Shown piece by piece: positions 1,569 to 60,858 of a stretch of DNA of 64,000 nucleotides. The notes under the pieces are model-generated. The model saw only the letters and a list, made by a program, of their open reading frames with translations. It was not told the DNA's origin and searched no databases. The stretch covers positions 4,192,001 through 4,256,000 of the forward strand of contig OZ242010.1 in assembly GCA_965204745.1 (NCBI GenBank), given 5' to 3'. A program made the translations under genes and the position numbers. Origin of the DNA: Candidatus Latescibacterota bacterium. Its GTDB lineage: Bacteria; Latescibacterota; UBA2968. The stretch's first letter is position 1. Each line of letters opens with the position of its first letter.

Positions 1569-1782
1569 GCCTGCCGTGAGGGAATCGGTGAATCGAGATA
1601 CGACTGCGATAGCAGTTCATCGACGAATCAGCGAATCGGCAGAACCGGGGCCAACTGACCGTTTTTCAAGCCAAGTCACCACAGGCATCGCCCTACATTT
1701 CTATCCTCGTCTCTTACCGCTTACCTCTCGCGTCTGCCCTCTTGTTGGGCGGTCGGACGAACGGGTGGGGACTGACCTCTGC

Positions 1783-1890
1783 TTCCATCTTCGGGCACGC
1801 ACACGGCGGGGCTGGGGAGCGGCGGGGATCGCACGGGTGGCTGGGCGGAGCGGATGGGCACGCACCCGGCAGGGCGCGGTGGCGGGGTTG
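1783..1890. repeat. GC-rich dispersed composite repeat (GCACGG..GGGGATCGCAC..GGGCGG); relatives at ~7075-7275, ~12965-13100 and ~13880-14020
   Basis: Shared degenerate motifs in four intergenic regions. Confidence 0.55.
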
Positions 1891-1919
1891 TCTCCCCTCT
1901 CCCCTCTTGTATCTTGGAA

Positions 1920-2100
1920 GTAAGGGTTAATTAGGAGTTGCGCCCTCGTATCGAGATAAGCCATCTTGATGCCCGGCTCGGGGAAGGCCGGCCCCTCTTG
2001 AAGGCGATGACCTTGTAGGTAAGATAGGCCCCCCGACCGCCGGGTCTATGCCGAAGAGTATCTAAGCCCCTTGAGGCTGCATATACAAGACCGGTAGACT
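1920..2100 (+). ncRNA. IS110 bridge RNA (target-binding loop 1979-2035, donor-binding loop 2044-2099); ends approximate
   Basis: Two stem/internal-loop/hairpin modules. Their loop strands match the reconstructed target (CCCCTCT at 1992-1998; AGGTAAG at 2017-2023) and donor (AGAGTATCT at 2055-2063; ATACAAG at 2083-2089). Confidence 0.88.
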
Positions 2101-2174
2101 TGGCGTCAATGGTCGGGACGCGACCCCGAGCGCGCACCAGATCCCTTACAACCCCCTCATCACAGGAGGCCCCC

Positions 2175-3182
2175 ATGTCGAAATCTCACCCCGCTTTTGC
2201 CGGCATTGATGTCAGTGCCCGCACGTTGTCCGTTGCCCTGTCCAGACCCGGACAAGCTGTCATGCAAGCGACCTTTGCCAATGATCCCCAAGCGCATAAG
2301 CGGTTGCTGAAGTGGCTCACGAAGGGCGGGCACATGGTCTCTGTGTGCCTCGAAGCGACCGGGCTTTACAGTTTGGGGGTGGCCTTGGCCTTGCATCGGC
2401 ATCGCCACACAAAGGTCATGGTCGTCAATCCCAAAGCGATGAGCAAGTACGCCCAAGCCTGCATGCAACGGGCGAAGACGGATGCGAAGGATGCGTTGTT
2501 GATCCTCGACTATGCCGAGCGCATGCCTTTTGTGCCTTGGCAAGCGCCGAGCGAGCAACGGCTTCAACTGCAAGCCCTCACCAGACGCATTGACCAACTC
2601 AAGCAGGAGATCATCCGCGAACAGAGCCGCAACCACGCGCAGAGCTACCACATCCGCAGCACACGTCTCATCGCACGCGATATTCAGGTGAATATTCGAC
2701 ACTTCAAACGCCGGATTGCATACTTGGAAAGCCAAGCCCTCGATCTCGTTTTGCACGATGAGCCCCTCAAGCGTGCCTACCAACGCCTCTGCTCGACGCC
2801 TGGCATCGCGCAAACGAGTGCCTTGCGGCTCTTGGCCGAGTTGACCCTTTTGCCAGAGGAGATGCAACCGCCCCAGTGGGTCGCACATGCAGGCCTGGAT
2901 CCCAAACCCAAACAATCCGGAACCGCCAATCCACAAAGACGCATCTCGAAAACCGGGAATAAGTACCTCCGCCATGCCCTCTATATGCCTGCCTGGGTGG
3001 CCATCAGACACGAAGGCCATGTCAAAGCCTTCTATGACCAACTCATCGCCCGCGGCAAGAAACCTTTGCAGGCTATCGTTGCGGTGATGCGAAAGTTGCT
3101 CCATTCGATCTGGGGCATGTTGCGCCATGACCAAGATTTTGAGGGCGAAAAATTCTATCGAATCACCCCGAAAACCCCTTGA
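2175..3182 (+). CDS. IS110 family DEDD transposase/bridge recombinase
   Basis: Motifs GIDVS, CLEATG, KTDAKDA, PGI, AGLDP..QSG, GNKYLR..LY, A.VAVMRKL; AGGAGG RBS before the ATG at 2175. Confidence 0.95.
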   Translation: MSKSHPAFAGIDVSARTLSVALSRPGQAVMQATFANDPQAHKRLLKWLTKGGHMVSVCLEATGLYSLGVALALHRHRHTKVMVVNPKAMSKYAQACMQRAKTDAKDALLILDYAERMPFVPWQAPSEQRLQLQALTRRIDQLKQEIIREQSRNHAQSYHIRSTRLIARDIQVNIRHFKRRIAYLESQALDLVLHDEPLKRAYQRLCSTPGIAQTSALRLLAELTLLPEEMQPPQWVAHAGLDPKPKQSGTANPQRRISKTGNKYLRHALYMPAWVAIRHEGHVKAFYDQLIARGKKPLQAIVAVMRKLLHSIWGMLRHDQDFEGEKFYRITPKTP

Positions 3183-3242
3183 CCTTTTAAGAGAGTATCT
3201 TACCTCTTACCGAAAGGCGGGGCGGAGAGGCGAGGAACTGAA

Positions 3243-5528
3243 TCATATTCCAAATCCCCCCCTGCGGTGCTCGATTTTTATCTGCGGAATGTCTTTGATA
3301 TTGAGCTTAAAAAAGAAGCCCTTGTTGAAGCCCGTGGGGTACCACGAAAATCGGGCTTCCCAGCAGTGGAGGTCGCGGTACAGGGAGAGGCTTTGCGCCG
3401 AGAGGTTGGCATCGGGCAAAATCTCCACATTGACCGCATAGTCTATCCGCAACATTTGAAGGGGATTGACGCCCAAATCCGCTTTGACCCACGAGGTTTT
3501 GCTCGATGTTGTGCCGAATCGCCGCATGGCAATGTAGTGCGAGAGGTTGAATCGCCACGGCCCGGTGCCGGAAAAATCGCTGTACAAATCGCGTTCAAAG
3601 CCAAAATCCGCATCCGAGTAATCGCGGGAGGTCGAAGAATGAGACGGTTGCGTGCGCGGATCAGCGTGACCGCCGGCAAAGCGAAAATTGGAGGTGACGG
3701 TGAGGTTTTGCAAGCGCGGGTGCAAGAGGGACCTGGCGCCCGCATCGTCGTAGAGCCTGTGCGTCATGGCAATGCGAACATCCACGCGGGAGTCCGGTTT
3801 GAGGGATGCGCGGGTGCGGAGGGAACGCCATTTTTGCGCGGGCGCGTCAAAATCGTAGCCGGTAGCTATGTTGAGCGTGGCCAGGGTAAAGCGATGAAAG
3901 TCGTCGCCGCGTTGGGTTTTGAGTTCGAGCGTATTGCCGATAGACAAGTTGACGCTGCGCCTGGCGTCATGCCACTTGCGATTGCCCCCAAAGCCAAACG
4001 CGCCGCCAAAGATGCTACCGGTCTGGCTGTAATTGAAATTGATCTGGGGGTGTAACCGATGCCGAATGCCGCGCAAGCGTCCGAGGCGCGGTTGGAAAAT
4101 GCCGTACAATGTCGTACCCGTTGCGATAGCCGCGCTGTAAGACGTGCGCCGCGTGGTCGAATCCGCGTCGCTGCGTATCAATTCCTCGCTGAGATTCAAA
4201 CTCGGCGTGAGGTCGAGCCAGCCCATGGGCCGGTGCTGGCTGTTGACCGTGAGGAGGTTTTGCAGGGAAACGCGCGCGGTATTGGACGTCGGATCTGGGT
4301 TGCGCGTGAAGTTGTTGCCCAGGTTGCTCGAAAATCCGTAGTAAAAAGCGCGATACCACGGGCCTGTGGCAGAGTCCTCGCCGCCAAAGATGCGGCGTCT
4401 GGGTTGTCGAAAACCGATGCGGGGAAAGCCCTGAAAGCTGTTGGTCTTTTTGTTCAAATCTCGGTAGTAAGTCAGGCTACCGTCGATGCTGCGCCCGGAT
4501 TCGGGCCAGCGTTTGTCAAACGACAAACTGGAGCGCAGTTGCTGGTTGAGATAGCGATACAAATTGTCGCTGTTGCGGCGGTCAAAGCTGGTGCTGGTGG
4601 AAAATTGCCCGCGCCCTCGGATGTTGGTCGTGGCATTGAGGCGGTGCTGGTGTTGCAGGTTGACGCGCCAGTCGTGGGCCGTGCCGGTCGTTGAGGTGTT
4701 GCGGTCGTAGCCGAGATCCACCGCGCCGCTGAACCTGTTTCGCACTGCGTACGCGCCCCGGGATTCGAGCAAGAAGCCTCCGCGCTCTCGAAACGTGCCC
4801 TTCACAGTGGCATCCCAATAGTCACTCGACGCGAAATAGTACCCGAGATTGCGGACGAAAATCCCATCCCGGCTGTTGTTGCCCACCCCCGGCGTGAGCA
4901 AGCCGGATTGCCGCCCTTGCTTGACCGGAAAAACGAAAAAGGGCACCCAGAAGACCGGGACAGGCCCAATGCGGAAGGTGACGGAGCGACCGATGGCTTT
5001 GTCATTTTGCAAAATGCGTACATTCTTGCACGAGAAGTCGTAGTGGACGTGATCGCGGTCGCAGGTGCTCAATGAGAGGTCATACGCATTGAGGGCGTCT
5101 TGGCCTTCGAGCGCGATTTGGGCGCCGCGGTAGTATTTTCGCTGGTGGGATGCGCGCCCGGTTCGCACGCGCCCGCGTTCCGTGTCGAGGTTGTAGCGCA
5201 TGTACGCGCCTGAGATGCGTTCCGCGCCGCGAGTGAATTGGGGCAGGCCCAGGGTTTTTGCCCCTGTGGAATCGGGCAGGGCGCGCGCCGTGACCGTGCG
5301 GGTATTTTGATCGTAGGTGATGTGCCCGGCTTTGAGCGCGATATTGCGGTAGCGCAAGGTGGCATTGCCCACGAGTTCCACCTGCTCGTCCCGCACGCGA
5401 TAGACGACCTCATCCGCGTCAAACGCGATGGAATCCCCCGGCGCGTTTTCCGGCACTTGCCCCCATCCCTGCGTGGCGCATAAGACCCATAGCGCGACGA
5501 GGCATAATTTTTTTTTTCCCATCGTCAT
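3243..5528 (-). CDS. lptD: LPS-assembly protein LptD-like outer-membrane beta-barrel
   Basis: Signal peptide, OstA-like N-terminus, STCD and RQSGLLTP motifs, RDLHCWE C-terminal motif. Confidence 0.8.
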   Translation of the reverse strand: MTMGKKKLCLVALWVLCATQGWGQVPENAPGDSIAFDADEVVYRVRDEQVELVGNATLRYRNIALKAGHITYDQNTRTVTARALPDSTGAKTLGLPQFTRGAERISGAYMRYNLDTERGRVRTGRASHQRKYYRGAQIALEGQDALNAYDLSLSTCDRDHVHYDFSCKNVRILQNDKAIGRSVTFRIGPVPVFWVPFFVFPVKQGRQSGLLTPGVGNNSRDGIFVRNLGYYFASSDYWDATVKGTFRERGGFLLESRGAYAVRNRFSGAVDLGYDRNTSTTGTAHDWRVNLQHQHRLNATTNIRGRGQFSTSTSFDRRNSDNLYRYLNQQLRSSLSFDKRWPESGRSIDGSLTYYRDLNKKTNSFQGFPRIGFRQPRRRIFGGEDSATGPWYRAFYYGFSSNLGNNFTRNPDPTSNTARVSLQNLLTVNSQHRPMGWLDLTPSLNLSEELIRSDADSTTRRTSYSAAIATGTTLYGIFQPRLGRLRGIRHRLHPQINFNYSQTGSIFGGAFGFGGNRKWHDARRSVNLSIGNTLELKTQRGDDFHRFTLATLNIATGYDFDAPAQKWRSLRTRASLKPDSRVDVRIAMTHRLYDDAGARSLLHPRLQNLTVTSNFRFAGGHADPRTQPSHSSTSRDYSDADFGFERDLYSDFSGTGPWRFNLSHYIAMRRFGTTSSKTSWVKADLGVNPLQMLRIDYAVNVEILPDANLSAQSLSLYRDLHCWEARFSWYPTGFNKGFFFKLNIKDIPQIKIEHRRGGFGI

Positions 5529-7033: not shown

Positions 7034-7417
7034 CTTCTTTCGCCACCTCCTTCGGTGAGACGTAAGACGGGAGAAGTGAGAGGTGAGACAACCCCGCCAC
7101 CGCCCAAGGGCGATCCCCACCGCTCACCCTATCCGCCCGTGCGTGCCTCGCCTCGCCACCCATCCGCCCGTGTGATTCCCGCCGCTACCCCTGTCCTCCC
7201 GTGCGTGCCCTTCTTCTTCACTCCGCCCAAGTGCGATCCCCACCGCTCCACCCAGCCACCCGTGCGTGCCTGTCCGAAGCAGGGACTCGTTGAAGTGTCC
7301 CAGTTTCAAATTGGTATAAGTAATCCAGCGACTGAAACGGATCGCTTAGCCCATCGCTTCTTTTAACTTGTCCGTCCGCTGTAAATAGCTTATTTATAGT
7401 TTATATAGGAGGACAGC

Positions 7418-10325: not shown

Positions 10326-10476
10326 GGCTTGCCTCTTGCCTCTTGCCTCTCACCTCTCACCTTTTTAGGCGATAGCCCGTTCAAAGGTGATCAGTGAGTG
10401 TAGGTCTTCTCCCGTCTTGCCTCTCACCTCTCACCTTTTTTTTAACTCCCATTACTCGCTCCTTTGAGACTCCATA

Positions 10477-12921: not shown

Positions 12922-13104
12922 AAAGCGAAAACCAACCACCGCTGACCACGGCTGAATCCGGGTATAGGAACGCACACGGCAGGGCAGGGGAACGGAGGGT
13001 AGCGGCGGGGATCGCACTTGGGCGGTGGCGGGGCGGTCTCACCTCTCCCGTCTTCCCTCTCACCGAAGGGAGTTGGGCGGGGAGCGGAGGAGATCGGAGA
13101 TACC

Positions 13105-14983: not shown

Positions 14984-15881
14984 TTCAGCGAACAAAACTC
15001 TGGTCGCATTTCAAGGCGAGTACGGCGCGTTTAGCGAAATGGCGGCGCGTTCCTATTTTGGCGAGGATGTGCAGGTTGCGCCACAGCGCGATTTTGCGTC
15101 TCTATTTGCAGGGGTCGAACGCGGGGATTGCACGCACGGGATGGTGCCCATTGAAAATTCGTTGATGGGTAGCATTCACGAAAATTACGACCATCTGTCC
15201 GCGCACAATTTGCAGATTGTGGGCGAATTGAAATTGCGAATCGTTCACAACTTGATCGTGAATCCCGGGGTCGCGTTGGCGGATGTGCGCTCTGTTTATT
15301 CCCAAGCCCCTGCCCTGGCGCAATGTGCCGAGTTTCTCGCGTCGTTGCCGCGGGTCAAAGCGGTGATGGCGTCCGATACCGCGGGCGCGGTGAAGGCATT
15401 GAAGGCGTCGGGCGCGCGCGATGCCGCCGCGATTGCGAGTGCCCAAGCAGCCGTGGATTACGATCTGGAAATTCTACGTGCGGGCATCGAGGACGACCAT
15501 CAAAATTACACGCGGTTTTTGGTGGTGACAGCACGGGCGTTCGCGCCCGAAAAGCCGGCCATCACAGGCCCTGCAAAAACGTCGATTGTGTTTGCGATGA
15601 AAAACGTGCCGGGCGCGTTGTTCAAAAGTTTGAGCGTGTTTGCCTTGCGCGATCTCAATTTGCTCAAAATCGAATCCCGCCCCCTCGCGGGCAAGCCCTG
15701 GGAATACGCTTTTTCGCTGGATATCGAAGGCCACCTCGGACAAGAACCCTGCGCCCGCGCCATCGATCACCTGCGGGAAATCGCAACATTCGTCAAGGTG
15801 CTCGGCTCGTATCGACAAGGCGATGCGGTCGAAGGGGAAATCGTAAGACGCGAGATGAAAGGCGTAAGACGTGAGACGTAA
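14976..15881 (+). CDS. pheA: Prephenate dehydratase with ACT domain
   Basis: Motifs VAFQGE.GAFSE, PIENS, NYTRF, LLKIESRP, VLGSY. Confidence 0.93.
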   Translation: MDNSANKTLVAFQGEYGAFSEMAARSYFGEDVQVAPQRDFASLFAGVERGDCTHGMVPIENSLMGSIHENYDHLSAHNLQIVGELKLRIVHNLIVNPGVALADVRSVYSQAPALAQCAEFLASLPRVKAVMASDTAGAVKALKASGARDAAAIASAQAAVDYDLEILRAGIEDDHQNYTRFLVVTARAFAPEKPAITGPAKTSIVFAMKNVPGALFKSLSVFALRDLNLLKIESRPLAGKPWEYAFSLDIEGHLGQEPCARAIDHLREIATFVKVLGSYRQGDAVEGEIVRREMKGVRRET

Positions 15882-16042
15882 GACGTGAGACGGGAGACGT
15901 GAGACGTGAGAAGCCACCCAACCCCCTTCGCCTTTCATCCGCTTTCATCCGTGTTGCGTTTCGCTTTTCGCCTTTCACCTCTTGCCTCTCACCTCTCACC
16001 TTTTTGAGCATCGCCCCTACGAAGGGGGTTAGGTGGGGCGGA

Positions 16043-19632: not shown

Positions 19633-20718
19633 ATGACAAAATTCGGAATGGTGTTTTTGATGCTCGCAACACTCCTCGTTTCATGTTCTGATTCTGAAAA
19701 GATTGAAACAGAACAGTCGGTTGCGTCCGATTCAGCAAAGGTTGATTCAGACGCATTGGCGTGTGTGAACAAAGGTGGCAAGTGGGGGTTTATCAATAAG
19801 GTCGGTGAGATCGTTATCAATCCGCAATTTGGCTCTGCGGGAGATTTTTCAGAAGGGTTGGCGGTGGTGAGAATCGGTGGCAAGTTTGGGTATATCAATA
19901 AGGCCGGCGAGATCGTTATCAATCCGCAATTTGACGGTCAACCGGGGCCTTTTTCAGAAGGATTGGCACCTGTGGTAATCGGTGGCAAGGTGGGGTATAT
20001 CAATAAGGCCGGCGAGATCGTTATCAATCCGCAATTTTACTCTGCGTGGTCTTTTTCAGAAGGGTTGGCGGTGGTGAGAATCGGTGGCAAGGAGGGCAAG
20101 TGGGGGTATATCAATAAGGCCGGCAAGATCGTTATCAATCCGCAATTTGACTGGGCGGAGCCTCTTTCAGAAGGGTTGGCACTAGTGGAAATCGGTGACA
20201 AGTGGGGGTATATCAATAGGACCGGCGAGATCGTTATCAATCCGCAATTTGACTTTGCGGGGTATTTTTTAGAAGGGTTGGCGGGTGTGAGAATCGGTGG
20301 CAAGCCTAATGATATTGGATTGCTCGTCGGTCGCAAGTATGGATATATCAATAAGGCCGGCGAGTTTGTTATCAAACCGCAATTTGACGATGCCGAGGAT
20401 TTTTCAGAAGGGTTGGCGGTGGTGAATATCGGTGACAAGTATGGATATATCAATAAGGCCGGTGAGTACGTTATCAATCCGCAATTTGACGATGCCGAGG
20501 ATTTTTCAGAAGGGTTGGCGGTGGTGAATATCGGTGACAAGTATGGATATATCAATAAGGCCGGTGAGTACGTTATCAATCCGCAATTTGACGATGCCGA
20601 GGATTTTTCAGAAGGGTTGGCACTGGTGAACATCGGTGGCAAGTATGGGTTTATCAACCGGGCCGGTGAGTTCGTTATCAAACCGCAATTTGACGATGCC
20701 AAGGATTTTTCCAAATGA
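19633..20718 (+). CDS. WG-repeat (KWG-like) lipoprotein
   Basis: Lipobox-like LVSC; repeated K(W/Y)GYINKAGEIVINPQFD.A..FSEGLA units. Confidence 0.9.
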   Translation: MTKFGMVFLMLATLLVSCSDSEKIETEQSVASDSAKVDSDALACVNKGGKWGFINKVGEIVINPQFGSAGDFSEGLAVVRIGGKFGYINKAGEIVINPQFDGQPGPFSEGLAPVVIGGKVGYINKAGEIVINPQFYSAWSFSEGLAVVRIGGKEGKWGYINKAGKIVINPQFDWAEPLSEGLALVEIGDKWGYINRTGEIVINPQFDFAGYFLEGLAGVRIGGKPNDIGLLVGRKYGYINKAGEFVIKPQFDDAEDFSEGLAVVNIGDKYGYINKAGEYVINPQFDDAEDFSEGLAVVNIGDKYGYINKAGEYVINPQFDDAEDFSEGLALVNIGGKYGFINRAGEFVIKPQFDDAKDFSK

Positions 20719-20787
20719 TCGCGGGTTTCTGGGCGGCGCCTCTTTCAAAGTCGCCCCATTTTTTTTGTAGCCCGGGGGATAGGTCCC

Positions 20788-22371
20788 ATGAACGACGCAC
20801 AACAACCCATCAATGCCCTGCCCCAAGGGTATCGGCTCCAGGAATATGAACTGGTGCGCGTGCTCGGTTTTGGGGGATTCGGCATGACGTATTTGGGTTT
20901 TGACCACAACTTGGACAAAGCCGTGGCGATCAAGGAATATCTGCCTTCGGATATCGCCATCCGCACAAGCAATAACAGCGTCGTGCCGCAGGCGAGCGAG
21001 TTTCAAGGCGACTTTGAGTGGGGCCTGGAACGCTTTTTGGACGAAGCGCGTACCTTAGCCCGATTTGACCATCGCCATCTCGTCAAGGTGCATCGCTTTT
21101 TTGAAATGCACAACACGGCGTATATCGTGATGGAATACGCCGAGGGCGAGACTTTGTCCGAGTATCTCAACCGCAAAGGGGTGCTAACCGAATCAGAACT
21201 CAAGGCGATTCTGCATCCGATTCTCAAGGGCTTGGCGGCGGTGCATCGTGCAGATTTTCTGCATCGGGACATCAAACCTGGCAACATCGTCATTCGCGCC
21301 GAGGATCGCTCGCCTGTGTTGATCGACTTTGGCGCGGCGCGGCAAGCGGTGGGTGCAAAGAGCCGTTCTGTGACCTCCATTGTGACTCCGGGCTACGCGC
21401 CTATCGAACAATATGAAAGCCGGGGCAATCAAGGGCCTTGGACAGATATTTATGCGTTGGCGTGCGTGTGCTATCGCGCCTTGACCGACGATGTGCCGAT
21501 TCCGGCAATGGATAGGGTGCGCCGCGATCCGCTGATTCCGGTTTCGGATCGGTGCAAGGGCCGTGCGAGCCACCAATTTCTCGCCGCCATCGATCACGCG
21601 CTACAAGTAGATGAGACTGCCCGTCCGCAAACAGTATCCGAATGGCGCGCCGAGCTGGGCGACACGCCTGTTGATGTTCCGCCGCCGGTTCCGGCTCCGC
21701 AAATCTCGTCACCGTACGTTGTTGAGCATCCTGAGCCTGCACACGCTCAAGAACCGGTTAAGGAATACAAGGGATTTAGCCGCGTGATGTGGATCGCCTT
21801 GGGCGTGCTTATGCTCGTGTTTATGGTCCTTGAAATTTCTGATTATGTTGAGGAACAACGCAAAGCAGAGATTGCACGCCAAGAGGAAATTGCGCGCCAA
21901 GAAGAATTAGCACGTAGGAGGGCAGAGGAAGCAAGAAAGGCGGAAGAAGCAAGAAGGGCAGAGGAAGCAAGAAGGGCGGAGGAAGCAAGAAGGGCAGAGG
22001 AAGCAAGAAGGGCGGAGGAAGCAAGAAAGGCAGAGGAAGCAAGAAAGGTTGAAATTCCCGATGCCAACCTTCGTGCTGTGATTGAGTACGAGTTGTACAA
22101 GGCACGCGGTGCGCCGATCACACGGGCGGACATGACGCACCTGACGCGGATAGAAGCGTCAGATGCGCGCATTAATGATTTGACAGGGCTTGAGTTTGCA
22201 ACCGGGCTGACAGGCTTAAGCCTTCCCTTCACCCAGATATCGGATATCGCCGCGCTATCGGGATTAACCAACCTGATATCGTTAGACCTTTACGACAACC
22301 CGTTGAGTGCCACATCAATCAACACGCACATTCCGGCCCTTCGGGCCAGAGGGGTTTCGGTGGATTTTTAG
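20788..22371 (+). CDS. Hanks-type Ser/Thr kinase with TM helix, charged helical stalk and C-terminal LRR
   Basis: Motifs LGFGGFG.TY, AIKE, HRDIKPGN, DFG, TPGYAPIEQ; TM; (AEEAR[R/K]) repeats; IPDANLR and LTGLEFATGLTGLSL LRRs. Confidence 0.9.
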   Translation: MNDAQQPINALPQGYRLQEYELVRVLGFGGFGMTYLGFDHNLDKAVAIKEYLPSDIAIRTSNNSVVPQASEFQGDFEWGLERFLDEARTLARFDHRHLVKVHRFFEMHNTAYIVMEYAEGETLSEYLNRKGVLTESELKAILHPILKGLAAVHRADFLHRDIKPGNIVIRAEDRSPVLIDFGAARQAVGAKSRSVTSIVTPGYAPIEQYESRGNQGPWTDIYALACVCYRALTDDVPIPAMDRVRRDPLIPVSDRCKGRASHQFLAAIDHALQVDETARPQTVSEWRAELGDTPVDVPPPVPAPQISSPYVVEHPEPAHAQEPVKEYKGFSRVMWIALGVLMLVFMVLEISDYVEEQRKAEIARQEEIARQEELARRRAEEARKAEEARRAEEARRAEEARRAEEARRAEEARKAEEARKVEIPDANLRAVIEYELYKARGAPITRADMTHLTRIEASDARINDLTGLEFATGLTGLSLPFTQISDIAALSGLTNLISLDLYDNPLSATSINTHIPALRARGVSVDF

Positions 22372-36404: not shown

Positions 36405-36655
36405 GGTGCGTTGAATGGATTGTACCACGATGGGATTCTCGGAGTGATTAAGACGGGAGGGGGTTAGCCACAAAAGGCACGAGCGGGGTACAACTGGCGA
36501 TAGCCAGTTCAAAGGCACAAAAGGCGAGCAGGATGTGTAGGGGCGATGCCCCTGTGCTCGCCCTAAGATACAAGGGGAATGGCGAGAGGTGAGAGGCGAG
36601 AGGTGAGGCAACCCCGCCCATCCGCTCCCTTCAGGTAAGATACTCTCTTAAAAGG

Positions 36656-37663
36656 TCAAGGGGTTTTCGGGGTGATTCGATAGAATTTTTCGCCCTCAAA
36701 ATCTTGGTCATGGCGCAACATGCCCCAGATCGAATGGAGCAACTTTCGCATCACCGCAACGATAGCCTGCAAAGGTTTCTTGCCGCGGGCGATGAGTTGG
36801 TCATAGAAGGCTTTGACATGGCCTTCGTGTCTGATGGCCACCCAGGCAGGCATATAGAGGGCATGGCGGAGGTACTTATTCCCGGTTTTCGAGATGCGTC
36901 TTTGTGGATTGGCGGTTCCGGATTGTTTGGGTTTGGGATCCAGGCCTGCATGTGCGACCCACTGGGGCGGTTGCATCTCCTCTGGCAAAAGGGTCAACTC
37001 GGCCAAGAGCCGCAAGGCACTCGTTTGCGCGATGCCAGGCGTCGAGCAGAGGCGTTGGTAGGCACGCTTGAGGGGCTCATCGTGCAAAACGAGATCGAGG
37101 GCTTGGCTTTCCAAGTATGCAATCCGGCGTTTGAAGTGTCGAATATTCACCTGAATATCGCGTGCGATGAGACGTGTGCTGCGGATGTGGTAGCTCTGCG
37201 CGTGGTTGCGGCTCTGTTCGCGGATGATCTCCTGCTTGAGTTGGTCAATGCGTCTGGTGAGGGCTTGCAGTTGAAGCCGTTGCTCGCTCGGCGCTTGCCA
37301 AGGCACAAAAGGCATGCGCTCGGCATAGTCGAGGATCAACAACGCATCCTTCGCATCCGTCTTCGCCCGTTGCATGCAGGCTTGGGCGTACTTGCTCATC
37401 GCTTTGGGATTGACGACCATGACCTTTGTGTGGCGATGCCGATGCAAGGCCAAGGCCACCCCCAAACTGTAAAGCCCGGTCGCTTCGAGGCACACAGAGA
37501 CCATGTGCCCGCCCTTCGTGAGCCACTTCAGCAACCGCTTATGCGCTTGGGGATCATTGGCAAAGGTCGCTTGCATGACAGCTTGTCCGGGTCTGGACAG
37601 GGCAACGGACAACGTGCGGGCACTGACATCAATGCCGGCAAAAGCGGGGTGAGATTTCGACAT
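36656..37663 (-). CDS. IS110 family transposase/bridge recombinase
   Basis: Protein identical to that of 2175-3182. Confidence 0.95.
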   Translation of the reverse strand: MSKSHPAFAGIDVSARTLSVALSRPGQAVMQATFANDPQAHKRLLKWLTKGGHMVSVCLEATGLYSLGVALALHRHRHTKVMVVNPKAMSKYAQACMQRAKTDAKDALLILDYAERMPFVPWQAPSEQRLQLQALTRRIDQLKQEIIREQSRNHAQSYHIRSTRLIARDIQVNIRHFKRRIAYLESQALDLVLHDEPLKRAYQRLCSTPGIAQTSALRLLAELTLLPEEMQPPQWVAHAGLDPKPKQSGTANPQRRISKTGNKYLRHALYMPAWVAIRHEGHVKAFYDQLIARGKKPLQAIVAVMRKLLHSIWGMLRHDQDFEGEKFYRITPKTP

Positions 37664-37737
37664 GGGGGCCTCCTGTGATGAGGGGGTTGTAAGGGATCTG
37701 GTGCGCGCTCGGGGTCGCGTCCCGACCATTGACGCCA

Positions 37738-37918
37738 AGTCTACCGGTCTTGTATATGCAGCCTCAAGGGGCTTAGATACTCTTCGGCATAGACCCGGCG
37801 GTCGGGGGGCCTATCTTACCTACAAGGTCATCGCCTTCAAGAGGGGCCGGCCTTCCCCGAGCCGGGCATCAAGATGGCTTATCTCGATACGAGGGCGCAA
37901 CTCCTAATTAACCCTTAC
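37738..37918 (-). ncRNA. IS110 bridge RNA, copy 2
   Basis: Reverse complement of 1920-2100. Confidence 0.85.
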
Positions 37919-38006
37919 TTCCAAGATACAAGAGGGGAGACGTAAGATGCAATTTTAGCCACAAGCCAGGGACAGGGTCTCTGGCTCTTTTTGTGTCATT
38001 TCCGCT

Positions 38007-59784: not shown

Positions 59785-60858
59785 CTAAGGGGACTGTGTG
59801 GCAGGCCCCAAAAATCGGTTGATCGCGGTCATCAAGGTGAGGGCGATCAAGAGCAGGCTACCCAACTTAATCAGCAAGCGTTGTTCAAGAGCCTTGATCT
59901 CAGCCCGAACCGCTTGAATCTCGTTTCGCAGGGACGACTCGGTTTGCTCCAAATTGCTTTGAACCGCCTGAATCTCACTCCGCAAGGTCGCCTCGGTTTT
60001 CTCCAAATTGCTTTGAACCGCCTGAATCTCACTCCGCAGAGTCGCCTCGGTTTTCCCCAAGTCGTTGCGAACCGCTTGAATCTCGCTCCGCAGAGATGCC
60101 TCGGTCTTCTCCAAATCGCTGCGAACCGCTTGAATCTCGCTCCGCAGAGATGCCTCGGTTTTCTCCAAATCGTCACGCAGGGCTTGAATCTCGCTCCGCA
60201 GAGATGCCTCGGTCTTTTCCAAATCGCCGCGCAAAACCTCAACTTCGCTACGAACCGCTTGAATCTCACTCCGCAGAGATGCCTCGGTTTTCTCCAAATC
60301 GTCACGCAGGGCTTGAATCTCGCTCCGCAGAGATGCCTCGGTTTTCTCCAAATCGCCGCGCAAAACCTCAACTTCGTTGCGAACCGCTTGAATCTCGCTC
60401 CGCAAGGTCGCCTCGGTTTTCTCCAAATCGCCGCGCAAAACCTCAATTTCGTTGCGAACCGCTTGAATCTCGCTCCGCAAGGTCGCCTCGGTTTTCTCCA
60501 AATCGCCGCGCAAAACCTCAACTTCATTGCGAACCGCTTGAATCTCGCTCCGCAAGGTCGCCTCGGTTTTCTCCAAATCGCCGCGCAAAACCTCAACTTC
60601 GCCGCGCAAAACCTCAACTTCGCTACGAACCGCTTGAATCTCACTCCGCAGAGATGCCTCGGTTTTCTCCAAATCGCCGCGCAGGGCTTGCATCTCACTC
60701 CGCAGGGACATCTCGGTCTTCTCCAAGTCATCCCGAGTCGCCATATCCTCGCCGATTCCTTCGGCAAAGATATTCACCAAAGCATGCGCCTGATGCTCGT
60801 CAAAGTCGGCTTCCTCTTGCAACCGCAGGGACGCCTTGAGCGTATCGAATCCAATCAT
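59785..60858 (-). CDS. DUF1640/CCDC90-like membrane-anchored coiled-coil protein with an expanded stalk
   Basis: Head FDTL....L...F.E.QA.AL, ATRDDL neck, long repeats, C-terminal TM. Confidence 0.8.
   Translation of the reverse strand: MIGFDTLKASLRLQEEADFDEHQAHALVNIFAEGIGEDMATRDDLEKTEMSLRSEMQALRGDLEKTEASLRSEIQAVRSEVEVLRGEVEVLRGDLEKTEATLRSEIQAVRNEVEVLRGDLEKTEATLRSEIQAVRNEIEVLRGDLEKTEATLRSEIQAVRNEVEVLRGDLEKTEASLRSEIQALRDDLEKTEASLRSEIQAVRSEVEVLRGDLEKTEASLRSEIQALRDDLEKTEASLRSEIQAVRSDLEKTEASLRSEIQAVRNDLGKTEATLRSEIQAVQSNLEKTEATLRSEIQAVQSNLEQTESSLRNEIQAVRAEIKALEQRLLIKLGSLLLIALTLMTAINRFLGPATQSP

Follow-up and report, generated by a model that had tools for sequence, protein, structure and literature searches.

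The question raised by this locus is what kind of mobile element it carries, and whether the choice of its landing sites can be read from an RNA encoded within the element itself. The window (the whole 64,000-nt stretch of Candidatus Latescibacterota DNA analysed here) contains an insertion sequence body of 1291 bp at 1908–3198 on the forward strand, with a duplicated CT core on both sides. The element is confirmed as a member of the IS110 group of the IS110 family, that is, of the bridge recombinase elements. Very probably, it has been active recently and works like IS621, through a circle, a predicted bridge RNA and a guided exchange at CT.

At the left junction (1899–1907), target positions 1–7 (CTCCCCT, 1899–1905) and a CT core copy (1906–1907) precede the left end (LE) of the element, which starts with the right donor half TGTAT (1908–1912), the reverse complement of ATACA in 2083–2087. 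At the right junction, the right end (RE) closes with the left donor half AGAGTAT, which together with the other core copy (3199–3200) occupies 3192–3200, and the right target half TACCT (3201–3205) follows as the flank. These ends and cores, the target CTCCCCT-CT-TACCT and the donor AGAGTAT-CT-TGTAT had been proposed in an initial annotation of the window, and every coordinate was confirmed; the exact crossover point is ambiguous within TCTT. A second, identical copy lies on the minus strand (36640–37930) between identical flanks (..GTCTCCCCTCT before the element and CTTACCTGAAGG after it), in agreement with the earlier statement that both insertions in the window share one target. The first 28 nt of LE have two matches in the window vs. 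none in 100 shuffles. LE is non-coding and 267 nt long (1908–2174), RE comprises 16 nt (3183–3198), and direct reading of the element ends, TGTATCTTGG and AAGAGAGTAT, shows that neither is an inverted copy of the other.

The recombinase gene (2175–3182, forward strand), recognized by its Pfam domains and its homology to IS621 and ISCro4, encodes 335 amino acids plus a stop codon and is preceded by a ribosome-binding site, AGGAGG (2164–2169), 5 nt ahead of the ATG. The protein comprises an N-terminal DEDD RuvC-like domain (PF01548; 1.2e-24, 87.3 bits with a cut-off of 29, residues 9–154) and a C-terminal Tnp domain with the catalytic serine (PF02371; 4.8e-20, residues 203–287). Its best match among solved structures is the ISCro4 recombinase (PDB 9t56; 7.6e-40, residues 7–326), and the IS621 recombinase matches at 5.8e-36 over 319 residues. 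Residues D12, E60, D103, D106, and S248 align with D11, E60, D102, D105, and S241 of IS621, the catalytic residues as named in the accessible portion of PMC11208158.

The LE of the element folds into two internal loops, each built of a closing stem, a guide, a hairpin, and a second guide. The minimum free energy fold of 1930–2110 (−68.4 kcal/mol) reproduces both loops together with a 5′ stem-loop (1948–1972); as a single sequence, this region reaches only z = −2.1, with 2 of 200 shuffles giving a fold at least as stable. The consensus fold across families lends no support to the 5′ stem-loop, which is not conserved among them. The target-binding loop (1978–2036) is closed by an outer stem of two parts (1978–1983/2031–2036 and 1986–1989/2027–2030) separated by an AA bulge at 1984–1985, and it encloses the inner hairpin AAGG/CCTT (2001–2014, pairing 2001–2004 with 2011–2014). 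The donor-binding loop (2039–2104) has an outer stem formed by 2039–2046/2097–2104 and 2049–2053/2092–2096 and an inner hairpin AGCC/GGCT (2065–2078, pairing 2065–2068 with 2075–2078). The stems, hairpins, and guides of both loops are all found where the initial annotation had placed them.

When pairing was assessed on a set of 23 sequences from four genomes, 98.1% of the cells of the whole structure (31 pairs) were able to pair, vs. 28–51% with the partners slid; compensatory changes on both sides occur in 8 of the 31 pairs, and none of 500 shuffles attained any of the five measures used. In the donor-loop outer stem, both sides change in 5 of 13 pairs, and the target-loop outer helix is paired in 99% of cells with one compensatory pair. 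Both inner hairpins are paired in 100% of cells; the one in the donor loop has a compensatory pair, and the one in the target loop shows a GC to CG swap in a Gemmatimonadota relative. A helix 1973–1977/2039–2043, seen in the single-sequence fold, competes with the donor-loop outer stem and was rejected because it is the latter that has the covariation. Pairs of the consensus fold that join the 3′ end of a left guide to the 5′ end of a right guide were treated as spurious.

Within the target loop, the left guide CCCCUCU (1992–1998) has the same sense as target positions 3–9 and is followed by the linker U1999, and the right guide AGGUAAG (2017–2023) is complementary to target positions 8–14 (CTTACCT). 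In the donor loop, the left guide AGAGUAUCU (2055–2063; AGAGTATCT in DNA) has the same sense as the RE end with the core and is identical to 3192–3200 at 9 of 9 positions, while the right guide AUACAAG (2083–2089) is complementary to CT-TGTAT at all seven positions in the window copy. The natural 7-nt right guides claimed for this element are present in both loops; according to the accessible portion of PMC11208160, such guides have previously been reported for some IS110 orthologues. Among the 52 full-length copies in the genome, the left donor guide is constant in 51 (variant v5 has AGCGTATCT), and the right donor TGTAT is likewise constant in 51, with a 1-nt insertion in the remaining copy. 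Families OY and OZ of the sister genomes have one guide mismatch at donor position 13, and the distant element L078 combines a changed RE (GAGAAAAC) with a changed left donor guide (GGAAAACC).

The dinucleotide AU (2024–2025) that follows the right target guide is complementary to donor positions 7 and 6, and it had been read as a post-exchange handshake. Covariation in a relative supports this reading: AU goes with donor AT in eight families, and in L078 a GU after the guide goes with donor ..AC-CT. A2024 pairs with T7 of the target as well, which leaves U2025:A6 as the only pair that separates donor from target. In the donor loop, the corresponding dinucleotide is AC (2090–2091), whose first base, A2090, complements the T at target position 7. 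Across seven families, the first base of this dinucleotide and target position 7 are A:T, G:C, G:T, G:C, A:T, C:C, and C:G, which makes five Watson–Crick pairs, one wobble, and one mismatch. Target and donor of the window element both have T at position 7, hence the A2090 pair does not discriminate, and A2090 is able to pair with the donor's own T7. The accessible portion of PMC11208158 reports that the IS621 mutation G166A, which creates pairing with the donor's own T7, strongly lowered recombination; a handshake base harmful in IS621 is yet carried here by a family of 45 copies.

The genomic copies allow the guide assignments to be compared with many flanks. Open reading frames are intact in 51 of the 52 copies, one set of 30 and a second set of 8 copies are identical, and CT stands on both sides of all 52 and once in the empty site. 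The copies are located inside arrays of 7-nt tandem repeats, where the landing site is the boundary of a TCTCCCC unit and a TCTTRCC unit, and where the guides of a subfamily are altered, the repeat units at which it lands are altered to match. In class A (45 copies), CTCCCCT directly precedes LE in 33 copies and CCCCT occupies positions 3–7 in 41, whereas CTCCCCT accounts for only 244 of 3595 array units; the flank match is more than chance. Its 450 guide positions comprise 416 Watson–Crick pairs, 19 wobbles, and 15 mismatches, with 20 copies perfect and 17 deviating solely by a G:U at position 11. The exceptions are four copies with the left target TACCT (two mismatches), two with the right target CCCGT (three mismatches), and one with the right target TGCCC.

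The remaining guide sets follow the same rule. Variant v5, with guides TCCCTCT/AGGTGAG, is flanked by TCCCTCT|CTCACCT (10/10); four copies with CGCCTCT/AAGTAAG guides give 38 Watson–Crick pairs and one wobble out of 40, and v8 gives nine and one out of 10. The exception is v6, a mosaic with ends like those of the 89% family and with guides TGCCTCT/AAGTAAG that stand at TCCCTCT|CTCACCT with 3 of 10 positions mismatched. Different ends or unrelated targets in other genomic copies would have spoken against the initial annotation; the guides predicted the flanks of the other 50 copies and also those of three further guide variants, two sister genomes, and four distant elements. Copies within a subfamily are related, as are the three sister genomes, so there were fewer independent events than the copy counts suggest.

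Occupancy of the available sites depends on the quality of pairing. Perfect sites, CCCCTCTTACCT, are occupied in 20 cases and empty in 5 (80% occupancy), vs. 17 occupied and 65 empty wobble sites, CCCCTCTTGCCT (21%; Fisher p = 1.2e-7), a contrast that may serve as a field estimate of the cost of one wobble pair. Sites N5-CT-TACCT with another left half are occupied four times vs. 474 unoccupied matches, 72 of which fall within IS copies or at their ends. A second element, suggested by 47 matches to CCTATCTTACCT, was discarded since these matches, located within IS copies, are the reverse complement of the right guide itself. The occupation of 20 of the 25 perfect sites might also mean that the bridge RNA is used but that class A is now nearly immobile, its perfect sites being exhausted and its wobble and mismatched copies having been placed by RNAs acting in trans. 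The position of v6 at a site that fits the guides of v5 and not its own agrees with this, as does the trans activity of the bridge RNA in IS621 (accessible portion of PMC11208160). We consider such immobility rather unlikely, as 65 wobble sites remain free and 17 others carry identical copies, so that a G:U at position 11 is tolerated, just as IS621 tolerates an rG:dT pair according to the available parts of PMC11208158 and PMC11208160.

Relatives of the element extend the comparison beyond this genome. In the OY family, an AGAAAAG guide goes with CTTTTCT in 6 of 7 copies; copy L031 has one mismatched left target position and two others that only wobble, and copy L033 has one mismatch and one wobble in the right target. 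In the OZ family, CUCGCCUCU and GGGAG go with CTYRCCT-CT|CCCGT; no copy shows pairing at the two outermost positions of the right guide, and position 3 is mismatched in 5 of 18 copies. A Gemmatimonadota element has a CCGTTAG guide with CTAACGG (7/7). Eight further loci from other genera were found with the RNA model; L076, L079, L080, and L084 were left out of the guide/flank counts because they had no recombinase ORF or no element end, or because the flank fit needed an indel. The other four (L074, L075, L077, and L078) encode proteins 52–60% identical, and their left guides match at 8/9, 9/9, 5 plus 2 wobbles of 7, and 7 plus 2 wobbles of 9 positions, respectively, their right guides at 6/7, 6/7, 7/7, and 7/7.

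Altogether, the left target guide covaries with the left flank in v5, v7–v9, OY, OZ, L074, L075, L077, and L078, the right target guide covaries across families at positions 10, 11, 12, 13, and 14, and every programmable position except 5 changes with its partner in at least one family. For nine guide families, own flanks match at a mean of 9.44 of 10 programmable positions and the flanks of other families at 5.61, and the own-flank total was attained by only 1 of 100,000 permutations. These data bear on the proposal that the recombinase protein alone reads the heptamer repeat, with LE being a 5′ leader that regulates the transposase and the guide matches being incidental. All three array-targeting subfamilies do use one kind of repeat, and its units share positions 5–9 and 14, so part of every guide match comes free, and cross-family matches within the genome reach 6–9 of 10. 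Recognition by the protein alone is nevertheless highly improbable: the positions that differ between subfamilies (3, 4, 10, and 13) are those that change in the guides, the unrelated flanks of OY, Gem56, L074, L075, L077, and L078, which lie outside arrays, match their own guides, and the v0 and v5 proteins differ at only 11 of 335 positions, yet their targets differ.

The predicted RNA itself can be traced further. Covariance model R1, built from the structure, scores highest immediately upstream of the transposase gene, on the same strand, at five of five distant plasmid IS110 loci (E-values from 5.9e-15 to 8.8e-4; next best hit 0.44) and so finds the homologous RNA there. One of these loci, L069 on an Enterobacter plasmid, encodes an ISCro4/IS621-type protein (5e-188) and matches R1 at 6.9e-4, the alignment of the main hit being confined to the donor loop. 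An Rfam scan of 1700–3400 with E up to 10 returned no bridge-RNA family, its five matches all being weak and unrelated, and blastn of LE against E. coli genomes gave no match.

As for mobility, a contig of run X6, from another sample, represents the empty site: it joins 1904 to 3198, with 55 nt on the shorter side, and skips 1293 nt, i.e., the 1291 nt of the element and one CT. No RE–LE circle junction was found in four sequencing runs, all searched as contigs, and the predicted junction, as a 19-nt pattern, had no match in the assembly. An odd joint in run X1 (3220 to 1890, with 33 letters between) was considered as a junction and turned out to be an array-to-array contig. The description of the element as active thus holds as far as the 30 identical copies, the 51 intact reading frames, and the empty-site contig are concerned, and the circle form was not seen in contigs or assembly. 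It is very unlikely that the copies are fossils produced by segmental duplication or homologous recombination among arrays. In favour of this reading, arrays are prone to recombination, no circle junction was found in contigs or assembly, and the five 89% copies share ~25 nt of the left and ~45 nt of the right flank. Against it, the 30 identical copies have unrelated outer flanks past the array, the module harbouring the 89% family also exists in 11 empty copies, almost all reading frames are intact, and the empty-site contig differs by exactly 1293 nt.

The preferred IS621-like route can be outlined as follows. On leaving its site, the element would form a circle, with a single CT linking RE to LE. 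The junction would unite a −35-like hexamer TTGACC in RE (3179–3184, overlapping the stop codon) with a −10-like hexamer TATCTT in LE (1910–1915); across RE-CT-LE they are separated by 18 nt, and the assignment is a consensus match. The hexamers are conserved in two sister families, with a 17-nt spacer in L031 and L038, and no promoter-like site upstream of the predicted RNA in the integrated copy, nor an intrinsic terminator after it, was found. The junction promoter would drive an RNA of ~185 nt from LE and then the recombinase gene behind it. The donor loop of this RNA would pair with the junction and its target loop with the landing site, and the DEDD/serine recombinase would exchange strands at the CT core, aided by the two handshake dinucleotides. 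The sequence suggests that the RNA is expressed, that the circle forms, and that the guides may be reprogrammable, the last point being seen as natural covariation.

The element is a new and very well documented example of a known bridge-element type, and the IS621-type architecture and guide assignments put forward for it hold up across copies, variants, and relatives. According to the accessible portions of PMC11208158 and PMC11208160, on which the comparison with IS621 draws, the two share the same two Pfam domains, the same five catalytic residues, an RNA in LE, a CT core, and the loop order of stem, left guide, hairpin, right guide, and two handshake bases. In both, the left guide is same-sense and the right one antisense, with a one-base linker after the left target guide, and the target-loop handshake AU has the letters and place of A81/U82 with donor A6/T7 (PMC11208158). 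The donor, described earlier as close to that of IS621, is the same at all nine positions readable in PMC11208158 (6–14, ATCTTGTAT). A promoter formed across the circle junction is also described for IS621 (PMC11208158, PMC11208160), its counterpart here being a consensus match only.

The differences from IS621, within the same portions of those sources, are also clear. The proteins match at no better than E = 5.8e-36 (319 residues), and the targets are unrelated (CCCCTCTTACCT here vs. ATCAGGCCTAC in IS621). The left target guide pairs over 7 nt instead of 9 and the right one over 7 instead of 4, the right donor guide runs uninterrupted, with no bases flipped out, the first donor-loop handshake base is A instead of G, target and donor share TCT and not only CT, and the copies number 52. 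ISCro4 (PDB 9t56) is similar as the best solved-structure protein match and through the donor-loop hit of R1 at the ISCro4-type locus L069; it comes from a distant host and was compared by protein match and PDB entry name. Elements of the IS1111 group likewise combine a DEDD recombinase with an RNA guide, but in the available part of PMC11208160 their RNA lies in a long RE and they have subterminal inverted repeats, in contrast to the 267-nt LE, 16-nt RE, and absence of inverted ends seen here. Published lists of IS110 orthologues may already include relatives of the element. Our literature search found no paper that treats IS110 together with Latescibacter, and the heptanucleotide was not mentioned in the papers found that cover bridge RNA, IS110, and tandem repeats together.

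Elements of the IS110 family reportedly insert into repeated extragenic palindromes (Tobes and Pareja, 2006). These resemble the present element in that a short repeat dispersed through the genome provides many landing sites; here, by contrast, the repeat is a 7-nt tandem array, and one particular unit-to-unit boundary is used. A dispersed short tandem repeat offers a route to 52 copies without gene disruption. The targeted repeat is greatly expanded: the two sister genomes with array-landing elements have 1558 and 1226 arrays of four units, vs. 5 in a third carrier, whose element lands elsewhere, and 0–68 in 18 other genomes of the genus. One may speculate, with considerable doubt, that element and repeat are coupled, the recombinase expanding or spreading arrays by acting on CT-containing units and site exhaustion selecting for guide switching. 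Natural reprogramming would then partition, at arm's length, a landing pad that the element had made for itself. A single marker (91%) places the two array-rich genomes closest to one another, so the association of arrays with the element may represent a single event.

Bridge recombinases are under development as programmable DNA-insertion tools, and the present family offers a natural series of guide/target pairs in which the protein hardly changes: one genome holds four guide sets, and sister genomes add others. Of special interest are the guide diversification within one genome and the expanded heptamer target. Further features relevant to such tools are the continuous right donor guide and the 7-nt guides that pair completely to the left and right of the core.

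The IS body, window 1908-3198 on the plus strand (1291 bp), is bordered by CT on either side (1906-1907 and 3199-3200), begins with TGTATCTTGG and ends with AAGAGAGTAT; an identical second copy lies at 36640-37930 on the minus strand. Its sole long ORF (2175-3182, plus strand), preceded by an AGGAGG site, encodes a 335-aa recombinase, leaving non-coding ends of 267 nt on the left and 16 nt on the right. The protein matches the Pfam families DEDD_Tnp_IS110 (1.2e-24) and Transposase_20 (4.8e-20), and its only solved-structure matches, over about 320 residues each, are the transposases of ISCro4 (7.6e-40) and IS621 (5.8e-36). Recombinase residues D12, E60, D103, D106 and S248 align with D11, E60, D102, D105 and S241 of IS621, which form its composite active site according to the available portion of the IS621 report (PMC11208158). 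Within IS110, the element belongs to the IS621-type group and represents no new kind of system. All the coordinates of the initial annotation are borne out in the window sequence, and its decoding of guides, target and donor is right.

As far as the accessible parts of the two IS621 papers go (PMC11208158, PMC11208160), the predicted bridge RNA shares with IS621 the strand rules and the order of parts, the one-base linker behind the left target guide, the GU ahead of the right target guide and the handshake AU behind it, and donor positions 6-14 are identical. By the same sources, it differs in that the left target guide (CCCCUCU, 1992-1998) pairs 7 bases here but 9 in IS621, GG 1990-1991 facing CT; that the right target guide (AGGUAAG, 2017-2023) pairs 7 bases instead of 4; and that the right donor guide is continuous. 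Longer right target guides have already been reported for some orthologues in the part available of PMC11208160.

The predicted fold of the single sequence comprises two multi-part loops preceded by a 5′ hairpin, and a consensus fold of 23 sequences retains the outer stem and the inner hairpin of each loop. The 31 noted pairs are paired in 98.1% of 620 cells, versus 28-51% with slid partners; 8 of the 31 change on both sides, covariation being mostly in the donor-loop outer stem, and none of 500 shuffles attains any of these measures. A covariance model (R1) built from the 23-sequence alignment was applied, with filters disabled, to five IS110 loci on plasmids, their proteins having 32-52% identity to the window element's recombinase. 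At all five, its best match immediately precedes the transposase gene and is on that gene's strand (Acidisarcina 5.9e-15, Vibrio 3.5e-9, E. coli 8.1e-5, Enterobacter 6.9e-4, Salinibacter 8.8e-4), with no additional match below 0.44 in these loci. The Enterobacter locus encodes an ISCro4/IS621-type protein (5e-188 and 1.5e-178), and its main match covers the donor loop only.

A blastn search of the element's own 5.48-Mb genome (G000, contig C1) returned 77 pieces, including 52 full-length copies: 31 at 100% identity (one carrying a 1-nt insertion within the left end, LE; 30 full-length identical), 6 at 99.07-99.92%, 8 at 96.13% that are identical among themselves, one each at 95.74% and 94.82%, and 5 at 88.5-89.1%. 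The 335-aa ORF is kept in 51 of them and shortened to 262 aa in the remaining one. The five 89% copies have a common flank of ~25 and ~45 nt and represent separate insertions into a repeated module, because 11 empty copies of this module exist. At least seven truncated copies begin precisely at LE position 1 and end after 59 to 878 nt (G000:C1 950646, 2089406, 4730102, 2972661, 921772, 1433018 and 2860772); fragments keeping the right end (RE) are fewer in this genome.

Nearly all copies are located within arrays in which a 7-nt unit, CTYVCBT, is repeated in tandem. Scanning both strands of the genome by regular expression yielded 632 arrays of at least three units, totalling 3595 units; the first 2 Mb hold 94 arrays, versus none in shuffled 2 Mb. 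The window itself contains such arrays at 7060-7087, 10328-10362, 10409-10436, 13038-13058, 15862-15910, 15981-16001, 21933-21953 and 36587-36607. Among the 45 copies with the window element's guides, target positions 3-7 read CCCCT in 41 and TACCT in 4, while positions 10-14 read TACCT (24), TGCCT (17), CCCGT (2), TACTT (1) or TGCCC (1). Since CTCCCCT makes up only 244 of the 3595 array units, the left-half choice is no background effect. The TGCCT sites represent G:U wobbles, because position 11 (A/G) faces guide U2020. Genome-wide, 20 CCCCTCTTACCT sites are occupied and 5 free, versus 17 occupied and 65 free for CCCCTCTTGCCT (Fisher p = 1.2e-7). Sites of the form N5-CT-TACCT with another left half are occupied in 4 cases versus 474 matches, of which 47 lie within IS copies, as the reverse complement of the right guide itself, and 25 are RE junctions.

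Variant copies of the same genome carry changes in guides and sites alike. In v5 (G000:C1:1297036-1298324), C1992 is changed to U and A2021 to G, and the flanks TCCCTCT and CTCACCT compensate both changes, so that 10 of 10 positions are paired; the linker U1999 is changed to C, and target position 10 opposite is C. Four copies with guides CGCCTCT/AAGTAAG occupy CGCCTCT or CACCTCT on the left and CTTACTT (three) or CTTACCT (one) on the right, giving 38 Watson-Crick pairs of 40, one wobble and one mismatch. Variant v8 (TGCCTCT/AAGTAAG) is found at TACCTCT and CTTACTT. The exception is v6 (G000:C1:602782-604072), where v8's guides stand between v5's flanks and 3 of 10 positions are mismatched. 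This copy is a mosaic, its body resembling the 96% family and its first 100 and last 92 columns the 89% family; possible reasons for the misfit are a conversion of its ends once it had inserted and an insertion directed by the RNA of another copy. The element is an unusually clear natural case, in which the guide variants, the saturation of sites and the repeat that serves as landing pad merit a bench test.

In v5, a single copy, the left donor guide is also altered, to AGCGTATCT, with RE still AGAGTAT and a mismatch at donor position 3. A tandem pair at G000:C1:1121593-1124180 (minus strand) consists of a 100% and a 96% copy with only CTTACCTCT between them, the second LE lying one repeat unit past the first RE.

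Related elements retain the correspondence between guides and flanks. In a protein-guided search that covered one genome per species, 26 loci were found: 7 and 18 on two Latescibacterota MAG chromosomes (OY and OZ, respectively) and one on a Gemmatimonadota MAG contig. The OY family (80-84% protein identity) has guides TCCYCCT and AGAAAAG (AGGAAAG in one copy) and, in 6 of 7 copies, flanks NCCYCCT and CT-TTTCT outside heptamer arrays. In the OZ family (76-78%), the 9-nt left guide CTCGCCTCT lies one base closer to the hairpin, GGGAG alone pairs in the right guide, and 14 of 18 copies are flanked by CTYRCCT-CT and CCCGT. The Gemmatimonadota element (48%), truncated on its left side by the contig, has CCGTTAG opposite CT-AACGG (7/7). 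R1 matches 10 of 101 genomes of the phylum, the window's own included, and 3 of 20 within the genus. Of the eight loci newly found, four are complete elements with proteins 52-60% identical, the other four being left out of the guide and flank counts: L074 (left 8/9, right 6/7), L075 (9/9 and 6/7), L077 (5 Watson-Crick plus 2 U:G of 7, and 7/7) and L078 (7 plus 2 U:G of 9, and 7/7). When nine guide families are set against nine consensus targets, guides match their own target at 9.44 of 10 positions and others at 5.61; the observed sum is reached in 1 of 100,000 permutations, and OZ is the only row tied with another column.

After exchange, AU 2024-2025 would pair with donor T7 and A6. Every family with a donor ending in AT carries this AU, and L078, with a donor ending in AC, has GU. 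The first donor-loop handshake base forms a Watson-Crick pair with target position 7 in five of seven families (A:T, G:C, G:C, A:T, C:G), with one wobble and one unpaired base in the other two. Because position 7 is T in both target and donor, A2024 and A2090 would be able to pair both prior to exchange and afterwards. The IS621 counterpart of A2090, G166A, strongly lowers activity according to the portion available of PMC11208158; the same base is present in the family of 45 copies. We read A2090 as presumably neutral in the window element, since both DNAs carry T.

The computed RE-CT-LE junction brings TTGACC (3179-3184) to 18 nt from TATCTT (1910-1915), a consensus match only; OY and OZ junctions have TTGACC or TTGAAC, 17 nt and TATCTT. 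No promoter-like site precedes the RNA in the integrated copy, a single site in 1700-3400 being no more than chance. The putative junction promoter fits the IS621 account in the accessible parts of PMC11208158 and PMC11208160. A run X6 contig joins 1904 to 3198, skipping 1293 nt, with 55 nt on its shorter side and four ambiguous letters (TCTT); it is the empty site, either at the window locus or at a near twin of it. None of the runs containing this stretch is recorded as RNA. According to their abstracts, a 2026 paper and recent preprints make the case that excision has low efficiency and may yield a circle of single-stranded DNA; junctions would then be rare in assemblies.

Matches to four-unit arrays number 1558 in the window's genome, 1226 in G007 (by coordinates, the genome of OZ), 5 in G028 (OY) and between 0 and 68 in each of 18 further genomes of the genus, a backwards control giving 0-9. 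By one 420-aa marker, the nearest relative is G007 (91%), followed by G028 (88%) and the others (81-84%); hence, the arrays may have expanded only once, in an ancestor shared by two species. At OZ loci L045, L049 and L050, another start resembling an LE (TGTATCTTCGGAC or TGTATCTTTGACC) lies 14 to 55 nt past RE in the same array, indicating several IS110-type elements stacked in one array. G-rich dispersed intergenic modules adjoin arrays at window 1760-1890 and in the flanks of 89% copies (e.g., G000:C1:3988866-3989015); examples are GGGCACGCACGGGCGG, TAATCCGCGCAATCC and the palindrome-like GTAGGCACAGGCGTAGCCTAC, which also occurs beside elements of both sister genomes. Long imperfect tandem repeats at window 59852-60787 and 19676-20745, with periods of 54/75 nt and ~102 nt, probably encode within-protein repeats.
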